In this document: positions 411-59,522 of the stretch, piece by piece
Position numbering within the stretch: the stretch's first letter is position 1
Layout: the number at the start of each line of letters is the position of its first letter
Source: Chiloscyllium plagiosum
Taxonomy: Eukaryota
DNA length: 64,000 bases
Direction of reading: 5' to 3'
Assembly: GCF_004010195.1 (NCBI RefSeq)
Contig: NC_057735.1
Location: 46,040,514 to 46,104,513 of the forward strand
Program-made: the position numbers and the translations under genes
Notes under the pieces: model-generated
What the model was told of the DNA's origin: nothing
Databases searched by the model: none
What the model saw: the letters and a program-made list of their open reading frames with translations, nothing else

Positions 411-1342
411 TTGTGTTTCTGTTCGCCGAGCTGAGAATTTGTGTTGCAGATGCTTCGTCCCCTGTCTCGGTGACATCCTCAGTGCTTGGGAGCCTCCTGT
501 GAAATGCTTTTCTGATCTTTTCTCCGGCATTTGTAGTGGGTCAGTATATTGGGTCCAGGTCGATGTGCTTATTGATTGAATCTGTGGATGAGTGCCATAC
601 CTGTAGGAATTCCCTGGCTGTTCTCTGTTTGGCTTGTCCTATAATAGTAGTGTTGTCCCAGTCGAACCCATGTTGCTTGTCATCTGCGTGTGTGGCTACT
701 AAGGATAGCTGGTCGTGTCATTTCGTGGCTAGTTGGTGTTCACGGATGCGGATCGTTAGCTGTCTTCCTGTTTGTCCTATGTAGTGTTTTTGCACTCCTC
801 GCATGGGATTTTGTACACTGCATTGGTTTTGCTCATGCTGGGTATCGGGTCCTTCGTTGTGGTGAGTTATCTGAAAGTGGCTGTTGGTTTGTGTGCTGTT
901 ATGAGTCCTAGTGGTCGCAGTAGTCTGGCTGTCAGTTCGGAAATGCTCTTGATGTATGGTAGTGTGGCTAGTCCTTTGGGTTGTGGCATGTCCTCATTCC
1001 GTTGTCGTTCCCTCAGGCATCTGTTGACGAAATTGCGCAGGTATCCATTTTTGGCGAATACGTTGTATAGGTGTTCTTCTTCCTCTTTTTGCAGTTCTGG
1101 TGTACTGCAATGTGTTGTGGCTCTTTTGAATAGTGTCTTGATGCAACTTCTTTTGTGTGTGTTGGGGTGGTTGCTTTCATGGTTTAGGACTTGGTCTGTG
1201 TGTGTGGCTTTCCTGTATACCATTATGGTGAATTCTCCGTTTGGTGTTCTCTGTACCATCATGTATAGGAATGGGAGTTGGTCGTCCTTTTCTTCTTCTC
1301 TAGTGAATCGGATTCCTGTGAGTGTGGCGTTGATGATCCCAC
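411..1342 (-). mobile_element. Penelope-like element (family B), 5'-truncated: RT C-terminus, GIY-YIG endonuclease and terminal repeat
   Basis: ORF 867-1388 carries YRKATHTDQVLNHESNHPNTHKRSCIKTLFKRA. Downstream lie the VYKIPC..C / HYIGQTGR GIY-YIG motifs, with frameshifts. Near-identical to 25618-26499. Confidence 0.9.
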
Positions 1343-1397
1343 GTACATAGCAAGTGCAGCTCCAACAACATTCGAAGCTTGTCATCATTCAGGACAA

Positions 1398-1667
1398 GAG
1401 AAAGTGAGGGCTGCAGATGCTGGAGATCAGAGCTGAAAATGTGTTGCTGGAAAAGCGCAGCAGGTCAGGCAGCATCCAAGGAACAGGAGAATCGACATTT
1501 CGGGCATAAGCCCTTCTTCAGGGCTTTTCCAGCATCATTCAGGACAAAGCAGCCCACTTGATTTGCAAGTATTCACTCCCAACCTCCCACCACCAATGCT
1601 CAGTAACTGCGGTGTGTACTTATCCTGTTCCTTGGATGCTGCCTGACCTGCTGCGCTTTTCCAGTAT
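1398..1667. mobile_element. PLE terminal-repeat (family A) insertion with inverted pieces and a duplicated target
   Basis: Minus-strand copy at 1398-1522 includes the hammerhead motif. Plus-strand pieces at 1523-1533 and 1623-1666. atcattcaggacaa is present three times. Confidence 0.85.
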
Positions 1668-2066
1668 CATTCAGGACAAAGCAGCCCACTTGATTTGCAA
1701 GTATTCACTCCCAACCTCCCACCACCAATGCTCAGTAACTGCGGTGTGTACCATCTACAAGATACACTGTAGAAAATCATCAAAGACAACAGCTTCCAGA
1801 TATACGACCACTTCCATCTAGAAGGACAAGGACAGCAGATACATGGGAACGCCACCACCGCAAGTTCGCCATTCACTATACTGACTTGGAAATATATTGC
1901 TGTTCCTCCACTGCCACTAGGTCAAAATCCTGGAATTTGCTCCCTAAGGACCTAAGCACACGGGCTGCAAAAGAAGGCAGCTCACCACCACCTTCTCAAG
2001 GACAATTAGGGTTGGGCAGTTAGTGCTGGCCAGCAAGCAGCACCCACATCCCACAAGTGAATAACA
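1668..2066 (+). mobile_element. 3' end of a CR1/L2-superfamily LINE (also 1343-1397)
   Basis: Tail gcagctcaccaccaccttctcaagg...caattaggg...tgctggcc...cccacatccc. The same tail motif occurs at about 19280-19330 and (minus strand) 23425-23480. Confidence 0.6.
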
Positions 2067-5538: not shown

Positions 5539-8012
5539 CTACCTGGCTGGCCTTGTTCCAAACACTACATCCATCCCCAACTAAGTCCTTAACATACACA
5601 CATTATTTTTTCTGTAGCTTCTCTTAAGGCATTTTTGCACCAAGCCTGGTTTCCCTGACTCTGCCTTGGATACTGATGGCATGTACAGACTGTAGCCCAC
5701 CTCTTGGGAGAAATTAATCTTCTGACGGTAAGGGCATTGAGGCTGCGACATCTGCCAGGTCCATCTTGTCCTGGGAGGTTTCTTTGATACTAGGTAGAGA
5801 TGGTTAAGCTATAGGTTCTGACAGCCATGCTGGATGCTCTGAGGGGCTGGGTGTGTTTTGCTCCTGCCCTATTTACAAGGTTGCAGCTTTCATGTGGTCC
5901 ACAAGATTGTTCATGACCTACCCGAACTCTGTACATCGCAGGACCTGATCATGCAGGGCAATTCCCATGGTCTCAACACCAAACATTGTCCCATGTAGTA
6001 AACTGCCTCTCGCTTAGAGGAATGTTGTATCCAGCTTTGATGTTCCTGATGCTGTTTCACATTCCCACCCACCCCCAGGTCTGGGAAGATCAGATTTAAC
6101 CTGGTGCAGAGTCTCCTCCTCATTAGCAGTCTCTGTAGTTGTGTGAGGGGTGGTCCTATGATCAAACAGTAAGCAGGACAGTTTGGTATTGAGTGAAGCT
6201 GTAGACTGCTTCTTTAAGCTTGCCTTCAAAGTTAGTGTGTTCTTTCCGCCAGACCATTGAATGATGGATGGTGGGGAGCTGTTCTTAAATGCTGAATGCC
6301 ATTCATCTTCAGGAAGTATTCAAATTCCCTGTTGGTAAATGATGGCCCAGTGTCTATGTCCAACACCTCCAGGGGTTTGTGTATTGCAAAAGATGCTTGT
6401 AGCTTTTCTGTCATCTTCGCTGTGTTTGACGAATGAAATCTATGGACGTCTAACCACTTTGAATGGGCTTCCACAATGATTGAGAACATAAGGCCTATGA
6501 AAGGACTGGCATAGCTGACATGTGACTGAGTCTAGTGTTTACCTGGCCATTCGTATGAATGTGGGACAGCTGCTGGTGGTAATATTTGTCTTTGTTGGCA
6601 CTCTGGGCACTGCCCCACCAACACAGCTATGTTGGCATCCAGTTCTGGCCATCAGACATAATTTTTCATCAATATCTTCATTTTGGAAACCCCTGAATGA
6701 CCCAAGTGGAGTTCACCCAGTATCTGGCAGTGACCTTTGCTTGGGACAATCATTCTTGCTCTCCATACTAATATCCTATCGTTTACAGTGATCTAGTCTC
6801 ACTGGGTGCAGAAAGGTTTCAGTTCTGGTTGAGATGGCCCTTTGTTCTCCCATCACCACCAGCTGTTTTAGTTTTGCTAGGATGGGATTGTTTTAGTCTA
6901 ATATTGTCGGCTATGACTGGAAGGGTGTCCAGAAAGTTTAAAACCAGAATCAACTCTTCCGAGGAGGCACTACCGCTGGTAACGTCCGCCAATTTGTGAT
7001 CCGTTATTATTACAAATTCCTAAGAAATTATCCTGAATCTGTAGGGCCTCCAGAGTGTTGGTTCTCAGTCTGGCTGAGGTCTTTTGCAGACTTAAGGGTT
7101 GGAGTCCAGAGTTTGGTAAAGACTGGTTCTGCGATAACTAATGCAGCCCTGCTGGGATTGTCCTCCATTAGAACTGGGTGACCATTTAGAGTCAGAGTCT
7201 CATGAGACATTTATTTTGGTTCTGAGTTGGATGTTATTAAAGCAACTTAACTGATCCAAACCAGCTGTAGGTGGACTTTCCAGGATGTGCACCCTCCTGG
7301 ATACTGGCGTATGAGTTCTTTTACTTGGCAGCAACTACAATGGCCTGCAGTGTGGATCCTCAAGAAACGTTTAACTATTTAGCCAAGGCTTGGTTTTGTT
7401 TTAGAGTTTTGCTGTGGGCTGACATAGAGTCCCTTTGTTAAGATACATCCTGAGTGAGGCTATGCAGTTGCCTTCACTCAAGTTGTGTGCCCTAAGCTCA
7501 GTCAGCATGGCGAGGGGGTCTGCTTCCGTCAGAATACCCTGTAAGCCATAAGCTTCTCTTGGAGAGAGGATTCAGTTTTCAATATTACCGTGTAGTGCTT
7601 GTTTGAAATCCAAATGCACTTGAGCTAGTAGGTGCTTTTTGGAGTCGTGATATTCTTTAGCTAAATCTGTCAACTCTTGAAAGCTTTTTAGTATCTGGTG
7701 CCTCAGTATTTTTTCCAAATACTGGGCCCAGTTTTTGACGCAGGATCAAATGAGTCAATCTTAGCAAAAACCCTGACTCAAGGACAATGGTTGTAGAAAA
7801 TTTTCTTAAGAGTTTTTTCTCTTATCGCCACTGAAATAACTCCCCAAATGCCGCTATCTCGCCACCACATCTCCCTTTATTTACAAATGCATCACAGATG
7901 ACATTGACCGATCAAGGTCAAAGCTGGCTCCTAGACTGAGCAGAACCCTGACACTCCTGTTGAGACAGGACTACCTGATTAGACCAGATGAGCCCCAGTC
8001 AGGAAACTCATT

Positions 8013-8136
8013 GCTCGTTGTTGTGGTTCTGTTCGCCGAGCTGGAAACAGGAGGCTCCCAAGCACTGAGGATGTCACCTAGACAGGGGACAAAACGTTTG
8101 CAACAAACATTTCCAGCTCGGCGAACAGAACCACAA
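8013..8136. mobile_element. 124-bp inverted-repeat cassette of the PLE family B terminal repeat, inside the Gypsy 5' LTR
   Basis: 8013-8046 contains the reverse complement of 8111-8136. 13-bp TSD caggaaactcatt at 8000-8012 and 8137-8149. Confidence 0.9.
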
Positions 8137-8189
8137 CAGGAAACTCATTCTATGAAATCCACATGGCTGACCTTATTCCAATCACTACA

Positions 8190-10662: not shown

Positions 10663-11777
10663 ATTGAATTGAATTGATTTTGTTGTCACATGTACTAAGG
10701 CACAGTGAAAAGTTTTGTCTTGCAAGCAATGCAGGCAACCATTTTTATATGATCAGAAAATTGAAATGAATTGATTTTTTTGTCACGTGTACCATAGCAC
10801 AGTGAAAAGCTTTGTCTTGCAAGCAATACAAGCAATAGTTAAGTAGCATACATAAGTAAATAATAGGTAATCAGTGTCAAAAACAAAAACACAGGTACAG
10901 GCGAATTTAAGAGTTCGTGAGTCTGTTCAGTATTCTCACGACAGTAGGGTAGAAACTGTTTCGAAACCAGCTGTTGCGTATGTTCAGGCATCCGTACCTT
11001 CAACCCTAGAGGTTGTAGAAAAACATTGCCAGGGTGTGATGGATCTTTGAGGATGCTGGCGGCCTCTCGTTGACAGTGGGCCTAGTAGATGGATTCTGTA
11101 GATGGGAGGTTGGCCTTTGTGATTGTCCGGGCCGAGTTCACCACTCTCTGTAACCGTCTCCGATATTGACTGGTACAGTTGCCATAGCAGGTAATAATAC
11201 ATCCAGACGGAATGCTCTTGATGGCGCACCTATAAAAGTTGGCAGAGGAATTTGCCGTCATGCCAAATTTCCTCAGCTGCCTGAGGAAGAAGAGACATTG
11301 TTGAGCCTTTGTAACCAATGCATCCACATGAAGAGTCCAAGAAAGCTTGTGGTGTGTGACCACTCCTAGGAGCTTGACCCTCTCCACTCGTTCCACCTCT
11401 GTGCTGTTAATGTGCAGGGGGGCATGTGCAACATCTGGCCGAAAGTCAATAATGATTTCCTTGGTTTTGCCAGCATTGAGAGCTAGGTTGTTCTTAGTGC
11501 ACCATTTTTCCAGATCTTCCACCTACCGTCTGTGGTCTGTTTCATCCCCATCTGAGATTCGACCAACTATGTTGGTGTCATCAGTGAACTTGTAAGTGGT
11601 GTTAGTCTGATATTTGGCGACGCAGTCATGGGTTGACAGCGAGTACAGTAAGGGGCTGAGTATGCATCCCTGGGTGTTGAGTGTTAATGAGCATGAAATA
11701 TTGTCTCCAATCTTCACTGATTGTGGCATGTGGGTCATAAAACTGAGGATCCAGTTGCAGAGAGTGGGGCTTAGTCC
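10663..11777 (-). mobile_element. Rex1/Babar-clade LINE, 5'-truncated
   Basis: QGCILSPLLYSL.THDC...KFTDDT RT motifs, then WCTKNNLALNAGKTKEIIIDFR and KAQQCLFFLRQLRKFG...NFYRCAI. The 3' tail is (caatt)n. Confidence 0.88.
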
Positions 11778-19030: not shown

Positions 19031-19096
19031 CAGATGCCTTTTAAATGTTAACAATCATATAACAACAGATTGTAATCCAACAGGTTTATTTGGAAG

Positions 19097-19131
19097 CACT
19101 AGCTTTCAAAGCACAGCTTCTTCATCAGGTG
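19097..19131 (-). ncRNA. Minimal hammerhead ribozyme motif, family C (in a PLE-type terminal repeat, about 19060-19172)
   Basis: Minus strand reads cac-CTGATGA-a-gaagc-tgt-gcttt-GAAA-gc-TA-gtg. Stem I cac/gtg, stem II gaagc/gcttt, palindromic AGCT at stem III. Confidence 0.75.
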
Positions 19132-19178
19132 GTTGTGAAGCAGGACCATAAGACAGAATTTATAGCAAAAGAGGAAAA

Positions 19179-19210
19179 TCAACATTTCGGGCAAAAGCCC
19201 TTCATCAGGA
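19179..19210 (-). ncRNA. Minimal hammerhead ribozyme motif, family A
   Basis: Minus strand reads tc-CTGATGA-a-gggc-tttt-gccc-GAAA-tg-TT-ga. Confidence 0.7.
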
Positions 19211-19633
19211 ATGCGGAATCCACAAAATGTGGTTGACTCTTCATTGTCCTCTGAAATTGCCTAGCAAGTCACTCATTTTAAGGGCAATTAAGGATGGCAA
19301 AAATGCTGGCCTTGCCTGTGAAGCCCATAATCCATGTACCAATTGAACTTGCTGAGATGGTGCATTTTACACCTTAGCTACTTGACTGAAAAATAGTTTT
19401 TTTTTTCTAATTTCTTTTGCGTATTTTCCCATTTGCTTTAATTCCATACATAAACACCCTCTTGGCTTTTTTCTTACACTCATCTGTGCTCCCTATTATG
19501 TGTGCCATCCTTTATGAATATTCACTGTCATGTATGCAACCCCTCAGAGAACAATCCACTGATGTATTTCCCTTCTCATGTACTTATAAGTTAGTATCAG
19601 CTGTTGTTTTATTATAATACTATTTTATTGCAG

Positions 19634-22430: not shown

Positions 22431-22655
22431 CGTACATGAAGAGTCAGGAAGAAAACTCCAAGGATGACAATTTGTGGTGATGTTGAATGATAGCAAACAA
22501 CTGGAGGACAACCAAGTTGTCAAACAAGTGCAACAAAAAACAGCATGTATCTCTCCAGTTACGATCACAAGCTTTGTACAGCTCATCACACCTTCAAGGC
22601 GTTACATCGAAGTTTGAATTGTTCATCTTGTACACTCTGCTTTCACTGATTTGTG

Positions 22656-22747
22656 CTGAAACTTTATTGCTGGAACAGCACAGCAGGTCAGGCAGCATCT
22701 AGGGAACAGAAGATTCGACGTTTCGGGCACATGCCCTTCTTCAGGAA
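22656..22747 (-). mobile_element. PLE family A terminal repeat with an intact hammerhead motif
   Basis: Minus strand reads attc-CTGAAGA-a-gggc-atgt-gccc-GAAA-cg-TC-gaat, with a 4-bp stem I. 9-bp TSD tgatttgtg at 22647-22655 and 22748-22756. Confidence 0.85.
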
Positions 22748-23547
22748 TGATTTGTGTAATTACCAAGTTAACAACCTGTGCCTGTGTACAACCTACATTT
22801 GTCTGTTTGGGTCTTTTCTTATCTTTGGAAAGGAGGGATGTGTTTAATGTCTCGTAGCATGTCACCATAGCATTAAGAGAGACATTAATGATGGGTCACA
22901 TGCTATGATGTAGTGGTAATGACAGTACAAAGGTCTCAGACTCTATCTTTATTCAGGTCACTTAAAGTAAGATACACTGGATGGCAGATACACAACAACA
23001 GACATGGACCTGGTGACTACCTGTGATGTAAACCTTTACTTGAAGTGGCAGATTTGCTTAATTCTTAAATCAGCTTTGAAACATTGAACCAAGGTCATGA
23101 CAGATGCCATCTATAGGAAGATCAGGTGGTCAAGTATAGAACAATGACAGGCCAAGCGAGCTAGAGGCTTGGACATTGTAGCTGGACTCTCCTGAGTACA
23201 AGACGTCATAGACTGCGCACACCTGGCTGTCATGGTGCTCAGACCAGCCAGTGGCTTCATTTCAGCTAAAAGGCTCTCACCCTCAACATCGAATTTGTCT
23301 ATAACCACTACCAATATATCTTGCAGGTGTGTGTAGTTTATCTTGGAAGCAGCCACAAATCTTAGATTATCCTGCACTCCTCCTCCCCCAGTGTTTTGCA
23401 GTGACAGTATTATTTGTTCAGGAGTGGTAGGTGTTGCTGGCTAGTCCAGAATTTATTGCCCATCCCTAATTGCTTAGAGGACAGTTAAATATCAGTCACC
23501 TTGCAGTAGGTCTGGAGTCGTATAAGCCAAACCAATTGGGACGGCAT

Positions 23548-23830: not shown

Positions 23831-25617
23831 AGGTAAATGTAGTAGATTAAAGACATTAATGAACCAGATGAGTTTTTATAACAATCAAAGGGTACATAGT
23901 CAATATTAGTCTAGTTCCTTATTCCATAATTTTATTGAATTAAAATTTCAGCATCAGCATGGTGGAATTTGAATCCATGTTCATAGAATGATGTGTACAC
24001 ACACCATGGTTAAATATAGGCAGTTCCTTTGCCTACTTATCCAACTCCTGCACTTCTGAATAACCACTGTCAATGAATTGAAATGGTCATTAGCAACATT
24101 CATCATTTATTACATCGATGGAATGATTGTTACAAAGTCAGGGAGCTGGACATAATAGAATATGAATTCTCTGATAGGGGTCATTATTTAGTCTATTCAG
24201 GGAGACCTGGTCAACTTCAAAGGACGAATGCCAGGCCTAGAGATATTGTGTGCCTGAATGCTTAACTCAGTAAATAAAGAATGCTTGGTAACAGAATGCC
24301 AGCCTCCTGAAGAATTATTTCAATTGGTATTTATGCGTTCATGAACTTTACTCACCACCTGTGATGTCCAAGACCATTTAGAGGACAGTTTAATATTCAT
24401 AAAGATGCCCTGCTGTCATCTGAGAAGTGATGAAACCCTGCCACAGCCCGTGCATGCCTCCTCAACCTAATTTAAAGGCAGTAAAGCATATACTTGTTTG
24501 ATGACAGTGTCCTTGTAGCTTCAGGGCAAATGTCTTGCCTCCTAGAGTCCTAAGTCAGTCTGAGGCTAATAGCTGTCCAATACCGCAGTGTCACGTGGAA
24601 CATCAGTCTATGCCAGTGGCCACACTGCAGTAAGGCCATAGGAACAGGATTATCAGTTGAGTCTCGATCAGTGGTAAATGAGACTCAATCATTGGGACCT
24701 GTCAGGGAGACACCAGATCTTGTACCATCAGCAACCTGAGCTCTCTCCCCTGCAGTCACCAAGAAGCTGGAGGTGCGGATTCCTGAATAGTGGCTCTCTA
24801 ATGATGCCCATGATGCTGATGGGGAGACTTTGAAGTGACGTGACTAAACCTGCATCAGGTCCTAGTATTTCTCACAGAGTTACAAAGACCAGAGTGATCC
24901 ACATACGGTAGCTACACAATTGAGGCCAGGCACAAGAAATACTTCGCTAAAGCATGCCATTTAGGATAAGGCTGAATGTAAAGATATTGCAACAAGATCT
25001 GAAGGCCATCACCTGGGTGTGAAAGCACTCCAGCACCTGACTGCTTTCCCTACGTATGAGATTTGATACATCCGCGGCAATTCAGAGCTTTTATTCCAGA
25101 AGACCAAACAAGCATGTTGAAGGAAGACTTATTGCTATTCCTATATTATTCGTTGTTGATAGTGAATATATCCTTTTGAAGGAAAAAAAACAGGGCTGAA
25201 TCTTACAGTCTAAGCACAACAGTTTAACGGAATCTAAGAGTAAGTTGCAACAAATTTGTTTGAATGATTTTCGCCACAAGGCTGAGTGAGTTTTCTTGTC
25301 CTGTCTTACCAAATTTGCTGCCTTAATTGATGTTGCTGTCCCAATGGTGAGCATCACATCCAATTTCCATTCCATTGTACCATGTACTGATCCAAGAATG
25401 ACTCACTACTCATCAGATATCCCAGATTTTGCCAGTATCCTGGTGCAGTTGTCACGTTTAAAAGGCCATTGTACACCCAGACAAGCAGTATTAGTCTGGA
25501 GCTGCCCTGCACAATTTCTGATATTAATCTTGTTCATGGCAGACAGGGAAAATCAGCGTTTTGTGGCCATGATGTTTGAGTTCCTCCTGGACAGGGTGGT
25601 GCACAAGCAGGACTTGG

Positions 25618-30990: not shown

Positions 30991-31112
30991 AAAGGCTTTT
31001 GGCCGAAACGTCGAAATTTCTGTTCCTCGGATGCTGCCTGACCTGCTGTGCTTTTCCGGCACCACTTTAATCTTGACTCTAATCTCCAGCATCTGCAGTA
31101 CTCACTTTTGCC
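30991..31112 (+). mobile_element. PLE family A terminal repeat, truncated before the CUGA core
   Basis: ggcttttggccgaaacgtcga...gatgctgcctgacctgctg...atctccagcatctgcagtactcac. Confidence 0.8.
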
Positions 31113-35777: not shown

Positions 35778-36209
35778 GTAAGTTTTGTGCAATGTAAATT
35801 TAATTAATGTACACTGCTATGTAGTGGCAACGTAGAGGAATAAGGAAGAGAAAGACTTGCTAATTTGCAAATTAGCAGCGTTGAATAGTGCAGTTTAAGA
35901 ATTTGACAAAATGATGAATATATCAGTGAAGTAGTATAATCTTCATCAAATATTACTGCTTCGATCTCAACACCATATAATTATAGTTTGAAATCCTGGC
36001 CAACTTGATCCACCATGTAGGAGGCAGTATCATGATCTAAGATATATTATTAAAGAATATTTAAATATTGCTGTTACTTTTGGAGGATTTCTTAAGATAT
36101 GTAAAGGCATAACTTCAGAGCTGCATAGAACCTTTTCTTTAGTGGGGGTCACTTAGTTAGATAGGCAGAGTGTGATGCAGAATGATTCCAACATCAGGAG
36201 TCCAATTCA

Positions 36210-36853
36210 CATACAAAGAGACTTTGGTGTGCAGGTTCGTAGCTCCTTGAAAGTGGATTCGTAGGTAGACAGGATAGTGAAGCAGGTATTTGGTACGCTT
36301 GCCTTTATTGATCATTGCATCAAGTTTGGGAGTTGGAAGGTCATATTGCAGCTGTGCAGGACATTGTATAGGCCACTTGTGGAATATTCCGTGTAATTCT
36401 GGTCTCCCTATTATAGGAAGGATGTTATGGAACTTGAAAGGATTCAGAAAAGATTTACAAGGATGTTGCCATGTTTGGAGGGTTTGAGCTTTAGGGGCAA
36501 GGGGCATGGACAGGGTAAACAGACAAAGTCTTTTCCCTGGGGTAGCGGAGTCCAAAACTAGAGGGCATAGGTTTAAGGTGATAGAGGAAGGATTTAACAG
36601 GGACCTAAGAGGAAACTGTTTCATGCAGAGGGTGCTGCGTGTATGGAATGAGCTGCCAAAGGATGTGGCGGAGGCTGGTTCAATTACAGCATTTAAAAGG
36701 CATCTGGGTGGGTATATGAATAGGAAACTTTAGAGGGATATGGACAAAATGCTGGCATATGGGACGAGATTAATTTAGGATATCTGGCTGGCATGGATGA
36801 GTTGGGCTGAAGGGTCTGTTTCCATGCTGTACAGCTTTATGACTGTATGACTA
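36210..36853 (+). mobile_element. CR1/HER1-type LINE 3' fragment
   Basis: ESKTRGHRFKV...RGNCFMQRVLRVWNELP; tail gaagggtctgtttccatgctgtac...(atgact)n. Confidence 0.9.
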
Positions 36854-38719: not shown

Positions 38720-39750
38720 TTGAATAACAATAAATTAGAGGGATAGTCAATCCTGAGGAGGACTGTATCAACTTACAGGAGGACATTAATAAACTTATAG
38801 AGTAGTAATTAGCAATGAAGTTCAATGTATAAATGTCAGCTAGTAGATTTTTGTAGCAAGAAAAGGAAAGCTACTAATTATTTGGAAGGTATGAATCTGT
38901 TGGGGTAGAGGAACAGATACATCAATCACTAACAGTTGCGTCATCATTTTAAAACAAAAGCAAATTGAACCATGTCCTTAATTCCAAGAGGGATAACATT
39001 AAAAAGTAGAGAAGTTATGGTAAGCCTGTAGTGCACATTAGATGAAGCTTTAAGCACTCTATGTAGTTCTGGTCATTATAAAAACACATAGAAGAACTGG
39101 GGAGTTACAAAGATGATTGACAAGGATAATAGCTGAAAATGTTTTGCTGGAAAAGCGCAGCAGGTCAGGCAGCATCCAAGGAACAGGAGAATCGACGTTT
39201 CGGGCATAAGCCCTTCTTCAGGACCCCGAAACGTCGATTCTCCTGTTCCTTGGATGCTGCCTGACCTGCTGCGCTTTTCCAGCAACACATTTTCAGCTCT
39301 GATCTCCAGCATCTGCAGTCCTCACTTTCTCCCTGACAAGGATAGTACACAGTATGATGGATATACATATCCAAAAAGGATAAACTCTTCTCTTGAAAGA
39401 TGAAGACTGAGGAATGACTTTAAAACTGTGAAAGGTTTTGATATAAGTGTTTACAGACAGAATATGTTCGTTTGTGGGGAACAGCATAATTAGAGGTCAT
39501 CAATATAAAATGGTTGTCAAGAAATCCAAAAGGCAATTTAAAAAACTATTTATCTAAGCAATTTTTAAAAAATCCAAAGATTGGGGAGAAAATGGTATTC
39601 CGTAAATACGTTTAAGAGAAAGCTAGTCAACCTTTAGGGGGCCAAATGAAGTGTAGCATTTAATGATAAGATAAGGAGACATGGAATATGGCTCATATAA
39701 AGTATAAATGGATTTGTTGATCTAAATTACCTTTTTCTGTGTTGTGTAAT
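38720..39750 (+). mobile_element. Old CR1 LINE 3' fragment hosting a PLE cassette
   Basis: EEDC..LQEDI..L...AMKFNV.KC remnant and downstream CR1 motifs. Confidence 0.7.
39131..39333. mobile_element. Inverted-repeat cassette of PLE family A terminal repeats (intact hammerhead on the minus strand, 39192-39223)
   Basis: 39131-39204 is nearly the exact reverse complement of 39225-39298. TSD tgacaaggata(a/g)t at 39118-39130 and 39334-39346. Confidence 0.92.
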
Positions 39751-45479: not shown

Positions 45480-46170
45480 AATACTTGGGCAGAAAGGTGG
45501 AAAGAGACTGCAAACCTGCCACATCCCATTATGGTGAAGGACAATTAAACTCAGTAGAAATGGGGAAGCCCTGCATTGTACGCCATCAAGGCTGAAGCAT
45601 TCACAACAATTCTCAGCCAAAAAGTGACAATGTATGATCTATCTCAGCCTTCTCCAGTCATCCCAAGTATCATAGATGCTGGTTTTCAGCCAATTTGATT
45701 CACTCTGTGTAGAAGAAAGTGGTTGGAGGCATTGATTACTGCAAAGGCTATTGTTCCTGATAACATTCTGGCAATAGCAAGGAGGATTTGTGCTCCAGAA
45801 TTTGCTGCTCCCTTCCACCTGTTCCAGTACAGCTGTACTGGCATCCCCTCGACAATGAAAAATTATCTCGATATGTCCTGTAGACAAAAAGCTTGGCAAA
45901 TCTAACCTTGCTAATTGCTGCCCCAGAATATTCTTTATCAGTGAAGAAATGTTAAGTTTCACCAAGCAGCATCTGCTTAGCAAAATTTCACCAAGCAGCA
46001 TCTGCTTAGCAAAAGCTTGCTCACTTACGCCCAGTTTGGATTCTGTCAGGGCCACTCTGCTCTTGACCTCTTTATAGCCTTGGCTCAAACATAAACTAAC
46101 AGTTGAATTCCAAAGGGGAGGCGACAGCCCTTGATAACAAGGCTGCATTTGACTGGAGTATGGCCAAGTT
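45480..46170 (+). mobile_element. Degenerate LINE RT N-terminal region
   Basis: AKAIVPDNILAIARRICAPEFAAP..LFQ and the AQFGFCQGHSALDL motif. Confidence 0.7.
45957..46014. repeat. Perfect 29-bp tandem duplication
   Basis: tttcaccaagcagcatctgcttagcaaaa x2. Confidence 0.95.
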
Positions 46171-47065
46171 GGAGAATGTTCTCTTGAGTTTGTTTCTGAA
46201 CATGGTTAAAGTAGCCATCAGTAGGTCTAGATAGCAGGCATTGGTGGAGGTTATAATTGCCAAATGCCTGTTCAGCTCTCTTTTCACAGTTATGTCAGTG
46301 TCGGGGTGTCCATGGGGAGATAGGTGCAGTGTCTACTGGTACGTTTGAAGCTTTTCAGGGTAGGCCGGCCCTACAGGGTCTGAAATATGTTAATTCTTTG
46401 CCGACACTATTTTGTTTCGGACTCCCTTTGTTTGGCGCCTTTTTGAATATACTGACTTTGTAACATGGTTGGTAGTGAGCAGTGTGACAGTTTTGTTGTA
46501 TGGGTGATTTGGTTTTTGGGTTTATTTGAAACCTTTAAAAAAAAGTTCTCCTCAAACTGGGAGTTGGCTTCTGAACAGAGAAAAAGGTTCAGAAGGAAAA
46601 GGCATAAACTGCCTTTGTGTTTGTTCTGGACTTTAGCTTCACAATAAAACACCTATAAATCTTTAAAAGTCTTTTCCTGCCAGGCCACACCACCTAGGAG
46701 GAGACTCGAAATAAGGGTATCACTAAAATGTCCAAAGGTGGAAAGTCACACCAGCGACTGATTTCCCTCCTTAATGTGGAGACTCAGAACCTCCGCAGTG
46801 ATGTAATACATGTTTTCATTCCAGGAGAAAATAACCAACATCATCTGTTTTTTATGACAAAGCTGGGAAGTAGGTTCAAAGGGACCATCCAATACTAAAT
46901 GGAGGTGACAAACTGGTTTATGGTCACCTTGCCCCTTGTAAAGCTTGCCCCTTGCAGAGCAGTCCCGTAAAGCACACTGGACAGTGGAGACTTTGGAGAG
47001 GATTCCTTAGCTGGGCTAAGGAGTAGATAGAGGAGATGGGTAGTGCTCTAGGTAAACACCCTTAA

Positions 47066-47229: not shown

Positions 47230-50050
47230 TAAGGAGTACGTCTAACACTGAAGCAGCAGTCCAGAACATTTGACCGAATTGATCCTGGCGGAAGATGCGG
47301 CTGAATATGTTTCCTGGCACTCGCGCATCTTCTCCAAGTCAGTTTGGCAAACTTGAGGAGTACATCATTAGCCTATGGCGAAAGGACCATCCCCCACATC
47401 CGGCCAGTGCAAAGCCAGTACTGACAACTTCCTGTGCAAGAGGCCTAGGAAAGAGAATACAGCAGGCCAGACAAGGAACAGCCTTAATGCACTCCTCTCC
47501 TAAAGTGAAGGACATTGTCAAAGACCTCTTAACTTTAGTTAGACACTGAGACGACTTGCAGAAGTTGGCTTTAGGCAACCCAAACCTGAATGCATGCAGA
47601 CTCCCAAGTAAATATTCACGATCCATCCTGTCAAACACCTTCTTCTGATCAAGAGATAGGAAGGAAATTGAAAGATCAGTCCTCTGAGGAAGATGGATTA
47701 AATCACAGATAAATTGGATGTTGTCATGCATCTTCTGGTTGGTACCATGTAGGGCTGGTCATCGAGGATGGATCCAAGGTGAGACAAGACCTTGGCAAAG
47801 ATCTTGTAATCTTTGTTAAGGAGGGAGACCAGATGGCAGTTCTTTAATAAACAAAGGACCCCTTTCTTGGGCAGTAGAAAAATAATAATCCTGCATCAAG
47901 AAAGGGCAACTCTGTCTCATTGAGCATAACTTCAAGACCTACCCAGAATGGTTTCCACGATTGCCTGGAAAATGCTAAAGATTGCCATAGTCAGCTTGTT
48001 AGCCCAGTGCTCATCAAGAGCCCGATAATGATGTCAGGTAGCTACCCTACTGTGATTGGAGCATCAAACATGCTGGTTTCCCACTCCTGGGCTGACCTGC
48101 TTCAGATTCTCCCAAAGAACTCTGTGACCATCCTTGCAAGATAATTCAGAGAGCATAGAGCAGTGTTTAAGGCTGAGACCTGAGCAGATGCCCTCTGGAT
48201 CTGTGACAAGAGACCTGTCAGCAGCCAGCAGCACAAGGAACTGCTGTTGGGTGCCCTATCTTTTTTTCTAGTGAGTAGAAGAAAAGGATCTTTGAGGAAC
48301 CTGATTCATAACCTAACACACATGGCTTGGGATCCGATGTGTTGCATGTTCCCCCACATACTTTTCTTCATGTTGTATGCCCCTGCAGGGCTGTGTCTAT
48401 GCCAGGTTGACTAAAATGTGAGCATGTCCTTCTCCACATTCTCAAATCTGGATTCCATCTCTATATTTAAGCCATCATATATTCCTGACAGGAGACATAG
48501 ATAAGAATTTTGCTCATATCCCACCATAAATCAAGAAATGTATACTCCCCTGCTTCCTTCTCCAGCAGATCGAGAACAGAGAGAAAGAGTCCCGGAACTG
48601 CTTGTCCTCCAGCAACAAATTGTTCAAATGCCAATACCCAAACCTTAGCTGGGCATACTATAAAACTAGCGCCTCTTCGGTTGTAATCTGAAAATGGCAC
48701 CTGCCACATGAAAGCTGTCAGAATGCACAAGACATACACCAATGTAATCTGTATGTGGTGGATTTTGATGCTGAAAGCCCAGGCTTCAAGGTAGTAAAGA
48801 TGGTGAAGTCAGGATGGAGATCCTCCAGGCATCGAACTAGAGTGAAAGGCTTGACCAAGCTCCTCAGCCCTCCTTTGATACTGAGCCAGTCTGGGCACTA
48901 CCACGGTCCCCTTCCTTAAGGATGCAGTTGAAATCAACCCCACCACCCCATATGGATAACGCATTGGCTTACATTGATTGAGCTGAGAAGAATGAGCACT
49001 TCCTCAAAGAAGTGCATTTGCCTCACTCTGACCGAGGAGTGTAGAACACATAATAAGAACATAAGAACTAGGAGCAGGAGTAGGCCATCTGGCCCTTTGA
49101 ACCTGCTCCTCCATTCAATAAGATCATGGCCGATCTTTTCGTGGCCTCAGCTCCACTTACCCCCCTCTCACCGTAACTCTTAATTCCTTTATTGTTCAAA
49201 AAAAATCGCTTTCAAAACATTTATTAAAGTAGCATCAACTACTTCACTGGGTAGGGAATTCCATAGATGCATAATCCTGTGGGTGAAGAAGTTCCTTCAA
49301 TTCAACCTGAAATTTGCTCCACCTAATTTTGAAGCTATGCCCTCAAGTCTTAGTTTCACCTGCCAGTGGAAACATCCTCTCTACATGTATCTTATCTATT
49401 CCCTTCATAATTTTATGTGTTTCTATAAGATCCCCCCTCATCCTTCTAAATTCCAATGAATGTAATCCCAGGGTACTAAGTCTCTCCTCATAAGCCAACC
49501 CTCCTCAACTCTGGAATCAACCTCCTCTGCACCCTCTCTAGTGCCAGTGCATCCTTTCTCAAGTAAGGAGACCAAAACTGTGCACAGTACTCGAGGTATG
49601 GCGTCACCAGCACCCTATACAGTTGCAATATAACCACATTGCCACCATTGGACACCTGAATAATGCCTCACCTTCTTACATAGATGGGACCACACAGTGT
49701 CCAGAAGGCACAATAAGCTGTTCCCTGATGGACCATAATGAATAATCTTCTGCTGTCTTCTTCTGGGCCAGACAGATACATACCTGGCAATGGAAGGAGT
49801 ATACACTTTCCTTCAAGCCAAGTGGGAGTGGTTCAACCTTTACCTCAGTGCCTCCACTTGGTGCAAATACGGAGGAACAGTTCACAAGCAATAAAAGGTG
49901 GGACTTTTGATATGACCATCTGCTGTTCCATGGCTTTAAGGGAATCAACTGGCAGCTAGATCCTGTCCAAGGTGAGCCCCTTTGCTTGGTCTTCACAAAG
50001 TAAGCAGACTTCCTATACATTTTTGAGGCTGACTGTAGCAGCTATTGCCT
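47230..50050 (-). mobile_element. Tx1/L1-like LINE remnant (ORF1, endonuclease, RT), interrupted by a CR1 fragment
   Basis: DNIQFICDLIH...FLSLDQKKVFDRMDREYL (the SLDQEKAFDRV type); GVDFNCIL endonuclease motif at about 48920-48940. The ORF1 assignment (49630-50050) is weaker. Confidence 0.75.
49045..49630 (-). mobile_element. CR1 LINE 3' fragment
   Basis: Reverse-strand LQLYRVLVTPYLEYCAQFWSPYLRKDALALERVQRR; tail (ttcttatg)n. Confidence 0.9.
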
Positions 50051-51911: not shown

Positions 51912-52123
51912 TAAACTATAACACACCATCACCAGTAGCATTAGCAATGGATGGCAAAAGCTCACACCAGATAGTAGCAGAAAGTGAGCTCTGTGGCAAT
52001 GCAATACAATTCAAAATAATCTGGGCTTTTTTTTGTTATGAAATTCTCTTGGTAGCTGAATAATGTTGATTTAATGGCAATTTTATATTGAAAATGCATT
52101 CTTATTCTGTTTGTCATGATTAG

Positions 52124-52308
52124 GTTTCTCAAAAGTCTTTTGAAGAAGAATTAGAAAATGCCATGAAGATTATCATTCAGCTTACTGGAGAAAAAGAAAG
52201 CCAAATTGAAGAATTTAATAAAGTTACAACGAACAGTGCATCAACAATTGCTGAACTTCAAAATACAATTGAACATTTGGAGGAATCAGTCAGATCAGAA
52301 CAGCGAAG
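52124..52308 (+). CDS. SYCP1: SYCP1 internal coding exon E (185 nt): VSQKSFEEELENAMKIIIQLTGEKESQIEEFNKVTTNSASTIAELQNTIEHLEESVRSEQR
   Basis: Acceptor catgattag and donor gtaaaa. Clear match to the recalled STQKALEEDLQIATKTICQLTEEKETQMEESNK...LEELLRTEQQR. Confidence 0.95.
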
Positions 52309-52573
52309 GTAAAAAATAAATAAATAATTACTTTGTATTTTTAAACAAAATTTTGTTCCTATGGAATCAAAGCTGTAATAACTATAATTCAGCTAACTAT
52401 TAGGATAGATTTTGCAAACCAGCCTATTCTGAGTATGTTAAATCGGACCAAATCGCGGATGTTTTATTTAACATTGTTTCTTTGGAATAAGCTATGTGAA
52501 GAGTGAAGAAACCAAAGAAGTAAATATTCAGAATGTTTTACAATCTCAGATTCTGGATTTCTTTTAAAAATAG

Positions 52574-53340: not shown

Positions 53341-53359
53341 AAAGGTTTACGAGACTGAA

Positions 53360-54353
53360 TATATATGCTGAAGACAGAGTGGGATGGTGGGGCAAAGGTG
53401 TAAATGAAGGTGGAGATAGAATCCAGAGAGACAATGCAGCAGTTATACAAAGGCTTGGATAATGGTGAGCTGGGGAAAAAGAAAAGCTGATAATGGGAGC
53501 CATTTATTAATAGGAGAAAGTGAGGACTGCAGATGCTGGAGATCAGAGTTGAAAAGCGTGACACTGGAAAAGCATAGCAGGTCAGGCAAGCATCCGAGGA
53601 GCAGGAAAGTCGAATGTGGAGGCAGAGGGAAAGGGAACTGAGGGTGGGGTGGGGTGGGGGATAGCTGGGAAGATAATCAAATAAATGCAAGTGGGAGGGT
53701 GATAATGATAGATCAGAGTGGAGGGTGGATCAGATGGATGGGAAGGAAGATGGACAGGTAGGACAGTTCAAGAGGGCGGTGTCAAGTTGCAGGGTTGGAT
53801 CAGGGATGAGGTGGGGGGAGGGGAGATAAGGAAACTGGTGATATCAATGTTGATGCTGTATGGTTGAAGCGTGACAAGGCACAAGATGAAGCATTCTTCC
53901 TCCAGTCATCAGGTGTCTTGGGTTCGGTGGTGGAGGAGACCCAGAACTTGCATGTCGTTGGCAGAATGGGAGGGAGAGTTAAAGTGGTTGACCACAGGGC
54001 GCTGGGGTTGATTGGTGCGTGAGTCTCGGAGATATTCCCTGCAATGTTCCGCGCGTTGGTATCCTGTCTCCCCATTGTAGAGGAACCCACATCAAGAGCA
54101 ATGGACACAGTGGATGAGGTGATTGGATGTGCAGGAAAATCTCTGCTGATGTGAAAAGATCCTTTGGGACCTTGGATGGAGGTGAGGCAGTGAGGTGTGG
54201 GTGCAGGTTTTACACCTCTTGTGGCGGCAAGGGACGGTGCCAGGAATGGAGGGTAATTGGTGGGAGGGAGGGCTTGGACCTAACGAGGGAGTCATGGATG
54301 GAATGATCTATGTGGAACATAGATAAGGATGGGGAGGGAAATATATCTCTGGT
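53360..54353 (-). mobile_element. Neptune-type PLE 3' part with a family A terminal repeat
   Basis: GTVPCRHKRCKTC and FSCTSNHLIHCVHCS..G....G.T GIY-YIG remnants; terminal repeat at 53512-53615. Confidence 0.85.
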
Positions 54354-54989
54354 TCAAAGTTTGTGCGAAGATTTGTAGCTCGGGTGCTCGTTGTTGTGGT
54401 TATGTTCGCCGAGCTGGGAATTTCTGGTGCAGATATTTTGCCCCCTGTCTCGGTGACATCCTCAGTGCTTGGGATCCTCCTGTGAAACGCTTCTGTGATG
54501 TTTCCTCCGGCATTTGTAGTGGTTTGAATCTGCCGCTTCCGGTTGTCAGTTCCAGCTGTCCTTTTGTGGCTAGTTGGTGTTCATGGATGCGGATCGTTAG
54601 CTGTCTTCCTGTTTGTCCTATGTAGTGTTTTGTGCAGTCCTTGCATGGGATTTTGTACACTACATTGGTTTTGCTCATGCTGGGTATTGGACAACACTAC
54701 TATTATAGGCCAAGCCAAACAGGGAACAGTCAGGGAATTCCTAGAGGCTTGGCACTCATCCACAGATGCAATCAATAAGCACATTGACCTGGACCCTATA
54801 TACCGACCACTGCAGCGGACAGCTGGAACTGACAACCGGAAGCGGCAGATTCAAACCACTACAAATGCCGGAGGAATTATCACAGAAGCGCTTCACAGGA
54901 GGCTCCCAAGCACTGAGGATGTCACCTAGACAGGGGACGAAACGTCTGCACCCAGAAATTCCCAGCTCGGCAAACAGAACCACAACAAC
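54354..54989. mobile_element. PLE family B insertion with a twin inverted structure; intact + strand hammerhead at 54910-54949
   Basis: Minus arm 54354-54687 (GIY-YIG NVVYKIPCKDCTKHYIGQTGRQLTIRIHEH) and plus arm 54688-54989. 13-bp TSD atatatctctggt at 54341-54353 and 54990-55002. Core gca-CTGAGGA-t-gtcacct-agac-aggggac-GAAA-cg-TC-tgc. Confidence 0.92.
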
Positions 54990-55319
54990 ATATATCTCTG
55001 GTGGTGGGGTCATTCATTAGTAGGTGAAAATGGGTTGATGATAAGCCAGGATGTGGGGACGTGTAAAGGAAATGGAATAAGTTGTTCAGGCCCTAAAATT
55101 ATTAAACATGATTTTTAGTCCTGAAGGCTGCAGTGTTCCCAAGTGGAAAATGAGATGCTCTTCTTTAAACTTGCACTGAGTTCTGATGAAGCATTGCAGC
55201 AGGTCTGAAACATTGTTGGCTGGTGAACATGGTGATGCATTGAAGTGGCAGGCATCCAGAAACTTGGGGTAATTATTACAGAGAAAATGTAAGTCTTCAA
55301 CAAAGCACTCAGCCAGTCA

Positions 55320-57090
55320 ACATTTTATCTCCCCTCTCTATGGGGTTGGGGACTGTGAGCTTGGGGGCTGTGGTTGCAAGATCCCCAGATAAGAATTTTG
55401 AGTTTATGGGCACTAGCCAACCCTCTTCATGATGGGTGTGCAACCCCTTTATACTTGCATCAGGATGATCTTGGAGCTCTCCACTTCTTCCTGATAAAAA
55501 GGCCTGAACCATCCCCATTTACCATCTCCCTCCTCTGCCTGGCTGAGTTTGTCCTCAGTTTGAACAGCTTTTCCTTTGACTGCTCTCGCTTTCTTCAGTT
55601 CAAAGGTGCGTACCTGCATGGGCTCCAATAATGCTTGCTCTCTTTGTGGGGTTCATTGAACAATCCTTGTTCCAATCCTATTCAGGTCCCCTGAAAAATG
55701 TTTTCTCTGGTACATTGATGACATCACCGGTGCTGCTTCTCCCTTTCATCTGGAATCAGAAAACAATGATCACATTCACTTCTATTTTCTACCTGCTTTC
55801 ACCTGCACCTGATCCATCTCTGACACCTCCTTTCCCTTCCTCGGCTTTCTTTTTCCATTTCTGGTGTTAGACTGGCCACTAATATCCACTACAAGCCTGA
55901 TTCCTCCTGTTGTCTGGACTATGCATCCTCACACCTTGTTTCCTGTAGACTCCATTCCATTGTCCGGTGTCTCAGTTGCATCTGTTCTGGTGATGCCACC
56001 TTCCACAAGAGGTCTTAGAAATGTTCATCTTTTTCCTCAATCAAGGATTCCTCATCACCGTGGTTGACAGGGCCCTCAGCTGTGTCAGACCCATAGTTTG
56101 CATTCCAGCCCTCAACTCTTGTCTTCCTTTCCACTACACCAAAGGATTCCCTGGTCCTCACTTTCCACATCTACATCCAAAAGATCATTAGCCACATTTC
56201 CCCCACTTCAAGCCAGATGCAATTCACAGATAGGTTTCATTCTGTTCCCTTTTCAGTATTCCATAGGGATTGTTCCATCCAGGACATCCTGGTTCACTCC
56301 TCTACTCCACACACCTCACGGTTCCTTCCCATTTAATCATAGAAGGACTAACTCCTGTCTGTTTCCTTCCTCCCTCCTCAGGTGAGGCAGTGATTTACCT
56401 GCACTAGACTCAATATGGTCTCTGTATTTGCTGCTCACAATGTGGTTTCCTCTATGTTGGAAGACGAAACACAGACTTAGCAAACATGTTGCAAAACATC
56501 TACATATTATACACAAACATAACCTCATCTTCTAGTTATCTGCCACTTCAACACACCACTGTGTTCCCTGACCAGCATTTCTGACATGGGCCTACTGCTG
56601 TGCCCCAGTGAGGCTTAGCACAAACTGGAGAAACAGCATCTCATTTTCTGCTTGGGGTTCCTGCAGTCTTTAGGACTCAAAATTGAGTTCAATGATTTTA
56701 GGGCCTATTCACAACTACACTCCAGGCCCTGTCATCACATGGCTGCTTTCATCATAGCCGACCCATTTTCACCTACTAATGATTCCAATTATCAGCTTTT
56801 CTTTCTCTCTGGTTTGCCATTATTTATCCCTTTGCCTAACTCCTATTATCTCCCTCTGGTCTCCATCTCCTATTATCTCCTTCTAGACTCCATCTCCACC
56901 TATCATTTATTCCTTTACCCCAACTGCTGTCTTCAGCACTTTTCCCCACCTATATCCAGTCCTGAAGAAGTGTCACAGGATCCAAAACTTTGACCGTGCT
57001 TTCTCTCCACAGATGCTGCCAGACCTGCTGAATTTCTCAGCAATTTCAGTTTTTGTTTCAGACTTACAGCATTTGCAGTTCTTTGCTTTT
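55320..57090 (+). mobile_element. Neptune-type PLE (RT, GIY-YIG, decayed terminal repeat), preceded by an inverted segment at about 55040-55300
   Basis: YIDD RT motif at 55711-55722; LFVGFIEQSLF; C.QCG.LYVG.TK; ctgaagaag...acagatgctgccagacctgctg tail. Confidence 0.85.
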
Positions 57091-57094
57091 TTTT

Positions 57095-57555
57095 TGCAAG
57101 GCTGATTCCTGGGGTGAAGGGGTTGTCATGAAGAAAAACTGAGTAGGTTGGACTTTTACACATTGGAGTTTAGAAGAATGAGAAAACGTTTGGTTGAAAA
57201 TACAAGATCCTGTGAGAGATTAGTGGAGTGGATGTTAAGATGTTTCACTTCAATGGAGATCAAGAACATTGGGACACAGTTTAAAAGAATGGGCCTCACA
57301 TTTAAGATGGAAATGAGGAATTTCTTCTCTCAAAGGGTTGCTGTCCTTTGAAATTATCTTCCACAGAGAGCAGTAGAAGTTGGGTCATTAAATAGCTAAT
57401 TGAATTGTACACATTTTGGAAGTACGAGGGAGCTGATAGTCAAAGGTGGCAGGCAGGATAATGGAATTCAGGCCACAATCATGTTAGACATGATCTTTTT
57501 GAATAGCAGAGGCATCTCAATGGACTACTGCTCCTTTTTCTTTTGATCTTATGAG
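57095..57555 (+). mobile_element. CR1 LINE 3' fragment
   Basis: LEFRRMR...FKMEMRNFFSQRV motif and 3' UTR. Confidence 0.8.
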
Positions 57556-59199
57556 TACACAGGAGAATTGTCTTTTACAGTTACTACACTAACAACTTGG
57601 TTTTGTATATAACTTACATTATGCTATTTGTTATCCGTTTATTTCAGTTCTAATTGCTATGAAATAGTGGATCAACATGTGATGACTGAAGTCACCTGAT
57701 TGCTGTACCTGCTAATAATGATTTTTCTTATCAGGCAGGTGAAGAAAGTAAAGCAGAAACGTTTTTAACATGCACTAGTTAAAATTACTGCACTAGTGAG
57801 CTTAGCAATTCTCATACATGTGTTTTGTAAAACTAGAAGTATAGGCCTCTATGCACTCAGCATTAAAATTCAAATTCTGCAGGAGTGCAAGTATTGGAGG
57901 TAGTATTTAATGCATTACCTGGCTTAATTGGATATCACCAAATCCTGATTATTGTATTAATCCCACTTTAGGTTCCCTGTGTACTCTTTTTCTGAAGAGG
58001 TTTAGGTTGACTTGGTTTTCTGAAGAGCTTTATATTCACCGAGTACTTGGAACTGTTACTAGGAGGCTTATAGCTTTTTGTTGAAGAACTTGCAGTTGAA
58101 AGCTAGGTTGCTGTAATAATGAGACTTAATGTTGAGTTTTCAAAATATGTTTTAGATTGGGGAGAGGAGAGGAATTAGGCTAGTGTCAGGCAATATACTG
58201 GTTTTTCAGAAATCAGCTTTAGAAGCAGCATGTACACTGCAGAGATTGACCAAGGCTTCTTAGGCAGCACATTCCAAACCCAAATCCAGACTAAAAAGCA
58301 CACAGAATTCTCCAATTTACCTAACGTTCAGCTCTGGATTGATGGAAAATATGGACTGAGTTTTGTACTGAACAATAATTACTATTTTATAAATAAGTAA
58401 GCTCTAGCCGACTCTACTATTTAAAACTCAAAGCCTCTTGTAAAATTCCTCTCTACACAAACATATAGACAGGCACGTAAACAGAATGAATGTAATAGGC
58501 AGAGGGAAAGGCATAGAAGGCAGTTCGGTGGTTCCTGCCCATAGGCATTGCTGACATCATTATTTCTTTCTCCATATACTTCCAATTGTTTGCAAGTGGG
58601 AGAGGAACTGCTCCACACTTACGAGGGTTTTTGATTTATCAAAGCTACAGTTTACAGCAACTGGAAAAGGGAAATAAACTGGCTATTTTCAGACTTGAGT
58701 TTGCTTTACTGCAGAGGAAGGAACAAGCTTTTGCTTTTACAAAGCTTCGATTCCTTCTGCAAAATATTCATAGCCCTAAGCTGTTCAGCTTCCTTGGAGT
58801 CAATCACGTATTTGGTACAGGTCCTTGTCATCGATAACAGATCACTGGAATGAACTAGTTTTGCCAGCCAAAGTTTCATTTGTACACTCCCCTTGGCTCT
58901 AGCTTGTATGCAAACTAGACTTCCACTACTGCTTGAAAAGTAGTTGTGTAAACAGTACTTAAAATGAGTGTCCGGTTATTTGCTTTTAAAAAAGGCAGGA
59001 ATCCTTCAACATTAGTTTTTAAAACAGATCTTATCGCATTCCAGTCTACAATCAAAACTACAGACAAACAAAAATGTAAGGTCTTTACAAACCTCCACCA
59101 TTAAAAAAAACTGTAATAATATTTTTAGAAGTTTCATTATGAAATATGTAATATATAAATAAACGGCAAGACCTGCATCCATATATTCTTTCTTGCCCT

Positions 59200-59522
59200 G
59201 GTAGTGATTGTAATGAGGTCAGCCAGCTGGACCTCACAGAATATGGGTTTCCTAATTGGCACTGTTAACCTGATCCAATCAGGGATGCGTGACTGACATA
59301 AAAGTCACAACCACCTGATGAAGGAGCAGAAAAGCTAGTGCTTCCAAATACACCTGCTGGACTATAAACTGATGTTGTGTGACTTTTAACTTTGGACATA
59401 AAAGGATAAATGTCAGGGATCTTGAGCCCTGAATGCCTGACACAGTGAGAGATAGTGGTATTGTCAAAGACTGCATTTGTAAATAAAGGGTGATTGATGC
59501 AGGCCTCTGAAGAGTTGTTTCA
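59200..59522 (+). mobile_element. Solo LTR related to the 5051-8189 Gypsy LTRs, carrying a family C terminal-repeat insertion (59305-59394)
   Basis: gtagtgattgtaatgaggtcagccag...aaataaagggtga...gttgtttca matches the reverse complement of 7832-8189. The insertion is flanked by gacataaaag at 59295-59304 and 59395-59404. Confidence 0.8.

Follow-up and report, generated by a model that had tools for sequence, protein, structure and literature searches.

The window analysed here is a 64,000-nucleotide stretch of the Chiloscyllium plagiosum genome (contig NC_057735.1, positions 46,040,514 to 46,104,513 of the forward strand), in which an earlier note had listed 15 minimal hammerhead ribozyme motifs of three families (A, B and C) scattered through introns of SYCP1. 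Since Pfam SCP-1 matches lie on the plus strand inside the window, 57 kb before it and 129 kb after it, the host gene is indeed SYCP1 on the plus strand. The match inside the window corresponds to an exon bounded by AG and GT at about 52124–52309, and only this exon was located.

All 15 motifs were recovered where they had been placed, and they are real hammerhead-type motifs. Their sequence features (the core, one bulged base before stem II, palindromic NN and a short stem I) confirmed that they are minimal type I hammerheads with a palindromic stem III. The CUGANGA, GAAA and UH elements of the core are retained in 11 motifs and broken in the other four, with GAAG at 482, AAAA at 8065 and 54465, and a deletion at 59315. 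The claim that the stems differ while the core is kept holds for the families, including at least two more (D and E) found in the genome sample, but not for these four copies; stem II has 4 bp in family A, 5 bp in family C and 7 bp with a mismatch in family B. Judged by eye, core, full stem II and palindrome are all preserved in 5 of the 15 motifs (19128, 22744, 27817, 39221 and 54913), and 26392 still has both core and palindrome but has lost 2 nt from stem II. The variation of loop II described for family A is likewise real, TTAT being found in 36, TTTT in 20, CTGT in 10 and TCAT in 9 of 89 sampled copies.

Nine motifs lie on the minus strand, antisense to SYCP1 (cores 482, 1521, 19128, 19208, 22744, 27807, 30523, 39221 and 54465), and six are sense (8065, 26392, 27817, 30610, 54913 and 59315). 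Three pairs, 27807/27817, 30523/30610 and 54465/54913, are head-to-head arms of single insertions, so the 15 motifs represent 12 insertions. In addition, the BLAST census revealed three decayed motifs that had been overlooked, at about 30985, 56962 and 60098. The cut sites predicted earlier, after 26423, 27844 and 54946, are correctly positioned. A strict descriptor (CUGANGA, stem II of at least three pairs, GAAA-NN-UH) gave nine matches in the window, eight of them family copies and one unrelated at 39407, compared with a mean of 0.1 in 30 first-order Markov shuffles, and an Rfam search of the window at the gathering threshold gave 0 matches. The features of the window are as follows.

411–1339, minus: 5'-truncated family B (Poseidon-type) copy with a thumb/GIY-YIG remnant, hammerhead core 482 (GAAA to GAAG, broken) and short tail
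1398–1522, minus: family A hammerhead and long tail, starting 1 nt before core 1521; core intact, palindrome altered
1620–1664, plus: family A fragment, tail only
8012–8138, plus: family B hammerhead core 8065 (GAAA to AAAA, broken) and tail, with an inverted tail piece at 8012–8046
19044–19171, minus: family C hammerhead core 19128 (core and AGCT palindrome intact) and short tail
19172–19212, minus: family A hammerhead core 19208 (core intact, palindrome lost), adjoining the family C copy
22653–22750, minus: family A hammerhead and short tail, starting 6 nt before core 22744; fully intact
25594–26495, plus: 5'-truncated family B copy with a thumb/GIY-YIG remnant, core 26392 lying over the stop codon, stem II shortened by a deletion of 2 nt, cut site after 26423, and a long tail
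27682–27906, both strands: family A head-to-head insertion, minus core 27807 (stem II mismatch) and plus core 27817 (intact, cut site after 27844), predicted to form a single long hairpin
30436–30727, both strands: family C head-to-head insertion, minus core 30523 (stem II damaged; AATAAA at 30485–30480) and plus core 30610 (stem II and palindrome damaged)
30988–31113, plus: decayed family A-type hammerhead and long tail, overlooked earlier
39125–39332, both strands: family A head-to-head insertion, intact minus core 39221 and a plus arm beginning inside stem II
52124–52309, plus: SYCP1 coding exon with approximate bounds, AG..GT (Pfam SCP-1 match 52115–52348)
53512–54353, minus: older Neptune-type remnant with a GIY-YIG fragment and family A-like tail
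54388–54991, both strands: family B head-to-head insertion, minus arm core 54465 (GAAA to AAAA) and plus arm core 54913 (intact, cut site after 54946), predicted to form a long hairpin
55458–57053, plus: fourth, older Neptune-like remnant (reverse transcriptase to GIY-YIG) with a decayed hammerhead at 56962 of different stem II (family D), overlooked earlier
59306–59398, plus: family C hammerhead core 59315 (stem II removed by a deletion) and short tail, starting 9 nt before the core
60004–61460, minus: older family A-like Neptune remnant with a thumb/GIY-YIG fragment, decayed hammerhead at about 60098 and tail

Other retroelement fragments, LINE-like with RVT_1 and ALKBH8_N-type matches and unrelated to the hammerheads, lie at 11082–11522, 36157–36729, 45639–46205 and 47339–47758.

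Penelope-like families behind the motifs

None of nine open reading frames (ORFs) taken from the window matched a Penelope family in Pfam, and the families were identified from genomic copies. Translations in a single frame display the motifs of reverse transcriptase (RT) and GIY-YIG endonuclease for family A (locus L099), family B (L079) and family C (L052 and L060). The corresponding Pfam matches are weak but consistent, with GIY-YIG in L099 (E 1.7e-4, just under the cut-off), RVT_1 in L079 (8e-7, just under the cut-off), L052 (0.0025, below it) and L060 (4e-7, above it), and no match for two of the six proteins. The proteins are only 28% identical between families A and C and 25–35% between B and either of them over aligned stretches, in agreement with the proposal of three separate Penelope-like lineages.

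The hammerhead lies on the coding strand of the ORF in each family, just past the stop codon in A and C or spanning it in B, and the association is regular, a hammerhead standing about 160 nt past the match in 28 of 30 family A endonuclease loci and accompanying all 14 family B ORF loci. A CX4CxxC linker separates RT and endonuclease in the translations of A (L099) and C (L052, L049). In contrast, the family B translations (L079, L071) show no Cys linker, a CCHH endonuclease and an ORF that begins in the hammerhead. By their translated motifs and the linker criterion of the Neptune clade, a CX2-5CxxC zinc finger between RT and endonuclease given in the available text of PMC8557442, families A and C are classed as Neptune-type and family B as Poseidon-type, names that come from these features and not from a tree with reference elements.

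Moreover, long copies of families B and C carry a second hammerhead upstream of the ORF. The order in L079 is motif, ATG, ORF and motif; stem II of the upstream hammerhead opens with the start codon, and the second hammerhead spans the stop codon 2.5 kb later, an arrangement also reported for the Poseidon element of the green anole (PMC11167929). Direct repeats of this pseudo-long-terminal-repeat kind also surround the ORF in L290, L291 and L294 of family C, and family A offers only the short partial tandem L124, in which two intact hammerheads on the minus strand (cores 2593 and 2259) lie 334 nt apart and the first tail continues into an apparent ORF start. Neither 10 extended loci nor 27 long-tail matches yielded a full-length family A copy. 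L124, L290 and L291 provide natural two-hammerhead substrates. Two clusters of 3'-end length occur in each family, at about +83–92 and +123–128 in A, +74–80 and +105 in B, and +80–84 and +115–120 in C, and the inverted 5'-truncated copies typical of Penelope elements are seen as the head-to-head pairs of the window.

Family C has no coding sequence within the window, as had been observed, and from this it had been proposed to be a non-autonomous, ribozyme-only mobile RNA, similar to a short interspersed element or a retrozyme, that uses the enzyme of another element. The brevity of most copies (24 of 47 sampled begin within 12 nt of the core) speaks for that proposal, as does the existence of animal non-LTR retrozymes derived from Penelope repeats (10.64898/2026.07.22.740005, available part). 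However, the genome search suggested in advance, for family C repeats joined to an RT/GIY-YIG ORF, found this linkage in L019, L052, L290, L291 and L294. A 35-letter family C pattern had 1,563 exact matches in the genome, and one of the first 30 loci, L019, contained a GIY-YIG remnant upstream on the same strand. When this remnant was used as query, 23 of the 30 best endonuclease loci, L019 itself included, proved to have a family C motif downstream in the same orientation. L052 retains 403 stop-free codons running from RT motifs through the thumb and CX4CxxC linker to the endonuclease, followed by the family C motif. Long copies were sought with the N-terminal part and 10 loci were extended, of which L290, L291 and L294 showed hammerhead, ORF and hammerhead, with motifs 3,282–3,481 nt apart; L292 is a fourth such copy with an insertion. 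The ATG stands 92 nt after the cut site of the upstream hammerhead.

The family C motif and tail thus flank a family-specific RT and GIY-YIG ORF; the same short-stub pattern is found in family A, in 37 of 54 young copies, and no tandem array of hammerhead units is present among the 14 tandem-repeat rows of the window. The ribozyme-only reading is therefore refuted for family C as a whole and retains hardly any probability, the motif being the terminal repeat of a Neptune-type element; the earlier note had itself named such a linkage as the outcome that would dispose of this reading. Five seemingly long family C frames were rejected as products of assembly gaps. In L262 and L268, the family C tail between the upstream hammerhead and the ATG includes a stretch resembling a branch point and, not far ahead of the ATG, a CAG, together a candidate 3' splice site.

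Conservation was counted over copies aligning across the motif, a choice that favours well-kept ones. Among 89 family A copies, the mean share of the commonest letter was highest in the 10 non-CpG core columns (96%), followed by stem II (94%), the tail (90%), loop II (80%) and N7 (51%); the core columns are about level with the invariant tail columns, and subfamily differences fall at N7, loop II and the tail and avoid the core. The core is retained in 54 of 89 copies, and core, stem II and palindrome together in 38 of 89. This pattern may reflect selection acting on the source elements, with inserted copies then decaying neutrally.

The genomic background was taken from 100 arbitrary 10-kb stretches on 40 chromosomes (979,699 called bases) together with 20 stretches around the window (193 kb). 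Strict motifs numbered 76 in the genome sample, 20 in the flanks and 9 in the window. The genome sample contained 150 copies of families A, B and C that cover the motif, the flanks 41 and the window 17, which corresponds to one per 6.5, 4.7 and 3.8 kb, respectively. The density in the window is thus close to the genomic background, and the earlier view of SYCP1 as a seeded gene is overstated. The strict family count in the window, 8 against 5.0 expected, gives P 0.13, and any local excess is mild at most. Scaled to the assembly, the 76 motifs correspond by extrapolation to about 2.8e5.

Taken together, these data indicate, with a probability of about 0.9, that the motifs are hammerhead-bearing terminal repeats of three protein-coding Penelope-like families, present as cut-short and often head-to-head insertions that are likely inert in the SYCP1 introns. 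Several observations weigh against this interpretation. The core exceeds the tail in conservation in family A at P 0.029 (89 copies), and no significant difference appears in B or C (11 copies each). The 17 copies in the window compare with 9.8 expected (P about 0.02), in a window picked for the feature and with inverted arms counted twice, and the density of family B around SYCP1 is about four times that of the genome sample (20 copies in the 257 kb of window and flanks against 18 in 980 kb). The clade names come from motifs, and a separately amplified non-autonomous subfamily could exist among the short family C stubs. Finally, no fully open long ORF was found, the longest stop-free frames being 544, 523 and 288 codons in three long family C copies; all long copies seen carry stops or frameshifts, and present-day activity is thus a candidate property at most.

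Possible consequences for SYCP1

Cleavage of SYCP1 pre-mRNA by the sense copies, in cis or through dimers across families formed by the common ACGU palindrome, with an effect on processing, was considered as an alternative reading. Core and palindrome are kept in three sense copies (26392, 27817 and 54913), the first two of which are spaced by 1.4 kb, and the mild local excess of copies would also accord with a role. Nevertheless, two of the three, 27817 and 54913, are predicted to be trapped in long hairpins formed with the inverted arm of the same insertion. The predicted pairing probability of stem II at 27817 is 0.99–1.0 for the motif alone and 0.0 with the partner; that of 54913 is 0.0 with its partner, in a hairpin of about -400 kcal/mol. 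The cuts after 27844 and 54946 are therefore unlikely to be used, and the same applies to the cut after 26423, because 26392 is a lone copy with a shortened stem II. Family B monomers are predicted to favour another fold, with stem II probabilities of 0.0–0.08.

The strands are also balanced, with 87 plus and 94 minus copies in the sample and 30 plus and 34 minus in window and flanks, indicating that sense copies have not been purged. According to the available sections of the published work, cleavage was absent in minimal hammerhead monomers and weak in dimers (PMC4209133), the anole Poseidon hammerhead depends on the protein of its element (PMC11167929), and one of nine Xenopus retrozyme dimers cut (10.64898/2026.07.22.740005). 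Cleavage at the predicted sites is thus most improbable as an influence on processing and, as far as the folding predictions go, unlikely to matter to the gene. The motifs, read as terminal repeats of Penelope-like elements, likely do nothing special for SYCP1, for which they are of little moment as genome-wide retrotransposon debris.

Copy ends and polyadenylation

The 5' ends of the short copies gather at the hammerhead. Ends within -12 to +12 of the core start were found in 37 of 54 young family A copies and 24 of 47 family C copies, compared with one copy each in the 25 nt upstream of that interval and, in the interval +13 to +37 that includes the cut, 3 of 54 (A) and 9 of 47 (C). The count covered copies clear of stretch edges and gaps and outside the window, with family A copies of at least 90% identity; the young set is quoted because a few older rows scored as adjoining unique DNA resemble diverged untranslated regions (UTRs) by eye. 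Most short A and C copies adjoin an inverted arm or unique DNA rather than diverged UTR, and 3 of 8 long family C copies that reach the upstream hammerhead also start at its 5' edge. No such pile-up at the hammerhead edge occurs among family B copies. The possibility that short copies begin at the cut site, as a trace of cleavage, was rejected for A and mostly for C, since the ends gather at the 5' edge of the hammerhead. In family A this edge coincides with TCATT, which we take to be initiator-like.

RNA reads came from one poly(A) single-cell run (X19) and derive mostly from other loci (96% continue unlike the stretch), and cut fragments would be too short to appear among them. In the minus-strand family C copy, 736 and 526 reads have poly(A) joined at 30467–30468, a point 13 nt beyond AATAAA and 28 nt beyond the cut site, and the family C repeat thus supplies a working polyadenylation site 28 nt past the hammerhead cut. 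In addition, 326 reads show loose ends at 30507 that extend into an intact hammerhead of family C, which means that such reads cross the cut site uncut. The run showed no place where many molecules begin or end and, as a poly(A) single-cell library, is uninformative on start sites. A strand-biased read pile at 27219–27409 carries many fixed differences and evidently comes from another locus.

The 5' pile-up and the polyadenylation site hint at an LTR-like terminal redundancy, and Penelope repeats with internal promoters have been described (PMC2377424 and PMC3846280, available parts). For anole Poseidon, the accessible text of PMC11167929 reports tail-internal priming, uncut RNA as the main template and cutting only with the protein of the element. 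In the transcript of the shark element, two hammerheads would pair through their ACGU or AGCU palindromes, possibly aided by the element's protein, with weak cutting. With uncut RNA as template, reverse transcription would be primed in the tail, immediately 3' of the hammerhead, and give stubs of hammerhead and tail of 90–130 nt, and the inserted copies would then decay without selection.

The pile-up, the polyadenylation site and the uncut reads, combined with priming of the anole type, would fit strong-stop cDNAs made from RNA that starts at the hammerhead. A tentative model, to which we give clearly less than even odds, accordingly places the Neptune-type hammerhead inside an R-like terminal redundancy, with transcription starting a few bases before the core, poly(A) added 28 nt past the cut (family C) and priming in the tail; the stubs would be strong-stop cDNAs inserted directly or folded back, and making a full copy would require a jump to the hammerhead repeat at the 3' end. 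A similar 5' pile-up would also result from stalling at a hammerhead that is structured or bound by protein. The sharpness of the pile-up makes the Penelope replication cycle testable by mapping of 5' and 3' ends, and, if true, the terminal-redundancy model would be a testable answer to how these elements make copies of more than unit length, with the ribozyme left uncut on the copied RNA.

Comparison with known elements

No prior description of families A–C, nor of a strong-stop model for Penelope elements, was found in the literature searched, which leaves out most subscription papers. The term shark is absent from two supplementary files of PMC4209133 (Cervera and De la Pena 2014). That minimal hammerheads occur together with Penelope-like elements was already published in that paper, and the present families are further members. 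Its available sections place minimal hammerheads in the pseudo-LTRs of metazoan Penelope-like elements, with several families per genome and mostly single truncated copies. The shark motifs share with these the type I topology, the complete core, the single bulged base preceding stem II, palindromic positions 15.2–16.2 and, in the family patterns, a stem II whose basal pair is G-C. They likewise fall into several consensus families per genome, with mostly single copies tied to truncated elements. They differ in number, as the extrapolated 2.8e5 or so strict motifs compare with about 4,000 in coelacanth and 9,000 in Xenopus, counted with different descriptors. By that extrapolation, the genome would hold a few hundred thousand intact-core minimal hammerheads of at least five families, far above other vertebrates reported.

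Animal non-LTR retrozymes share with the shark copies a type I hammerhead from Penelope terminal repeats and are reported in the one cartilaginous fish sampled, according to the available part of 10.64898/2026.07.22.740005. Retrozymes, in contrast, form head-to-tail arrays and lack an ORF, whereas the shark copies occur dispersed, as single units or head-to-head pairs, and family C includes an ORF of its own.

Families A and C resemble the Neptune clade, as far as described in the available text of PMC8557442, in the CX4CxxC linker, the C-terminal GIY-YIG with CCHH residues, the occurrence of partial tandems and of inverted copies truncated at the 5' end, and a tail that may be extended by 30–40 nt. 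Within that type they would form two separate lineages (28% identity), of which C is distinguished by a 3' UTR of about 600–1,300 nt, a CA-rich tract and an ATG 92 nt past the cut. Family B is similar to Poseidon_Ac of the green anole (PMC11167929, accessible text), which also has no Cys linker before the endonuclease, an ORF starting at the start of stem II, a cut site slightly less than 30 nt past the start codon and two tail lengths, features read here from sequence alone. Unlike what is described for Poseidon_Ac, the family B hammerhead also overlaps the stop codon of the ORF in the downstream repeat.

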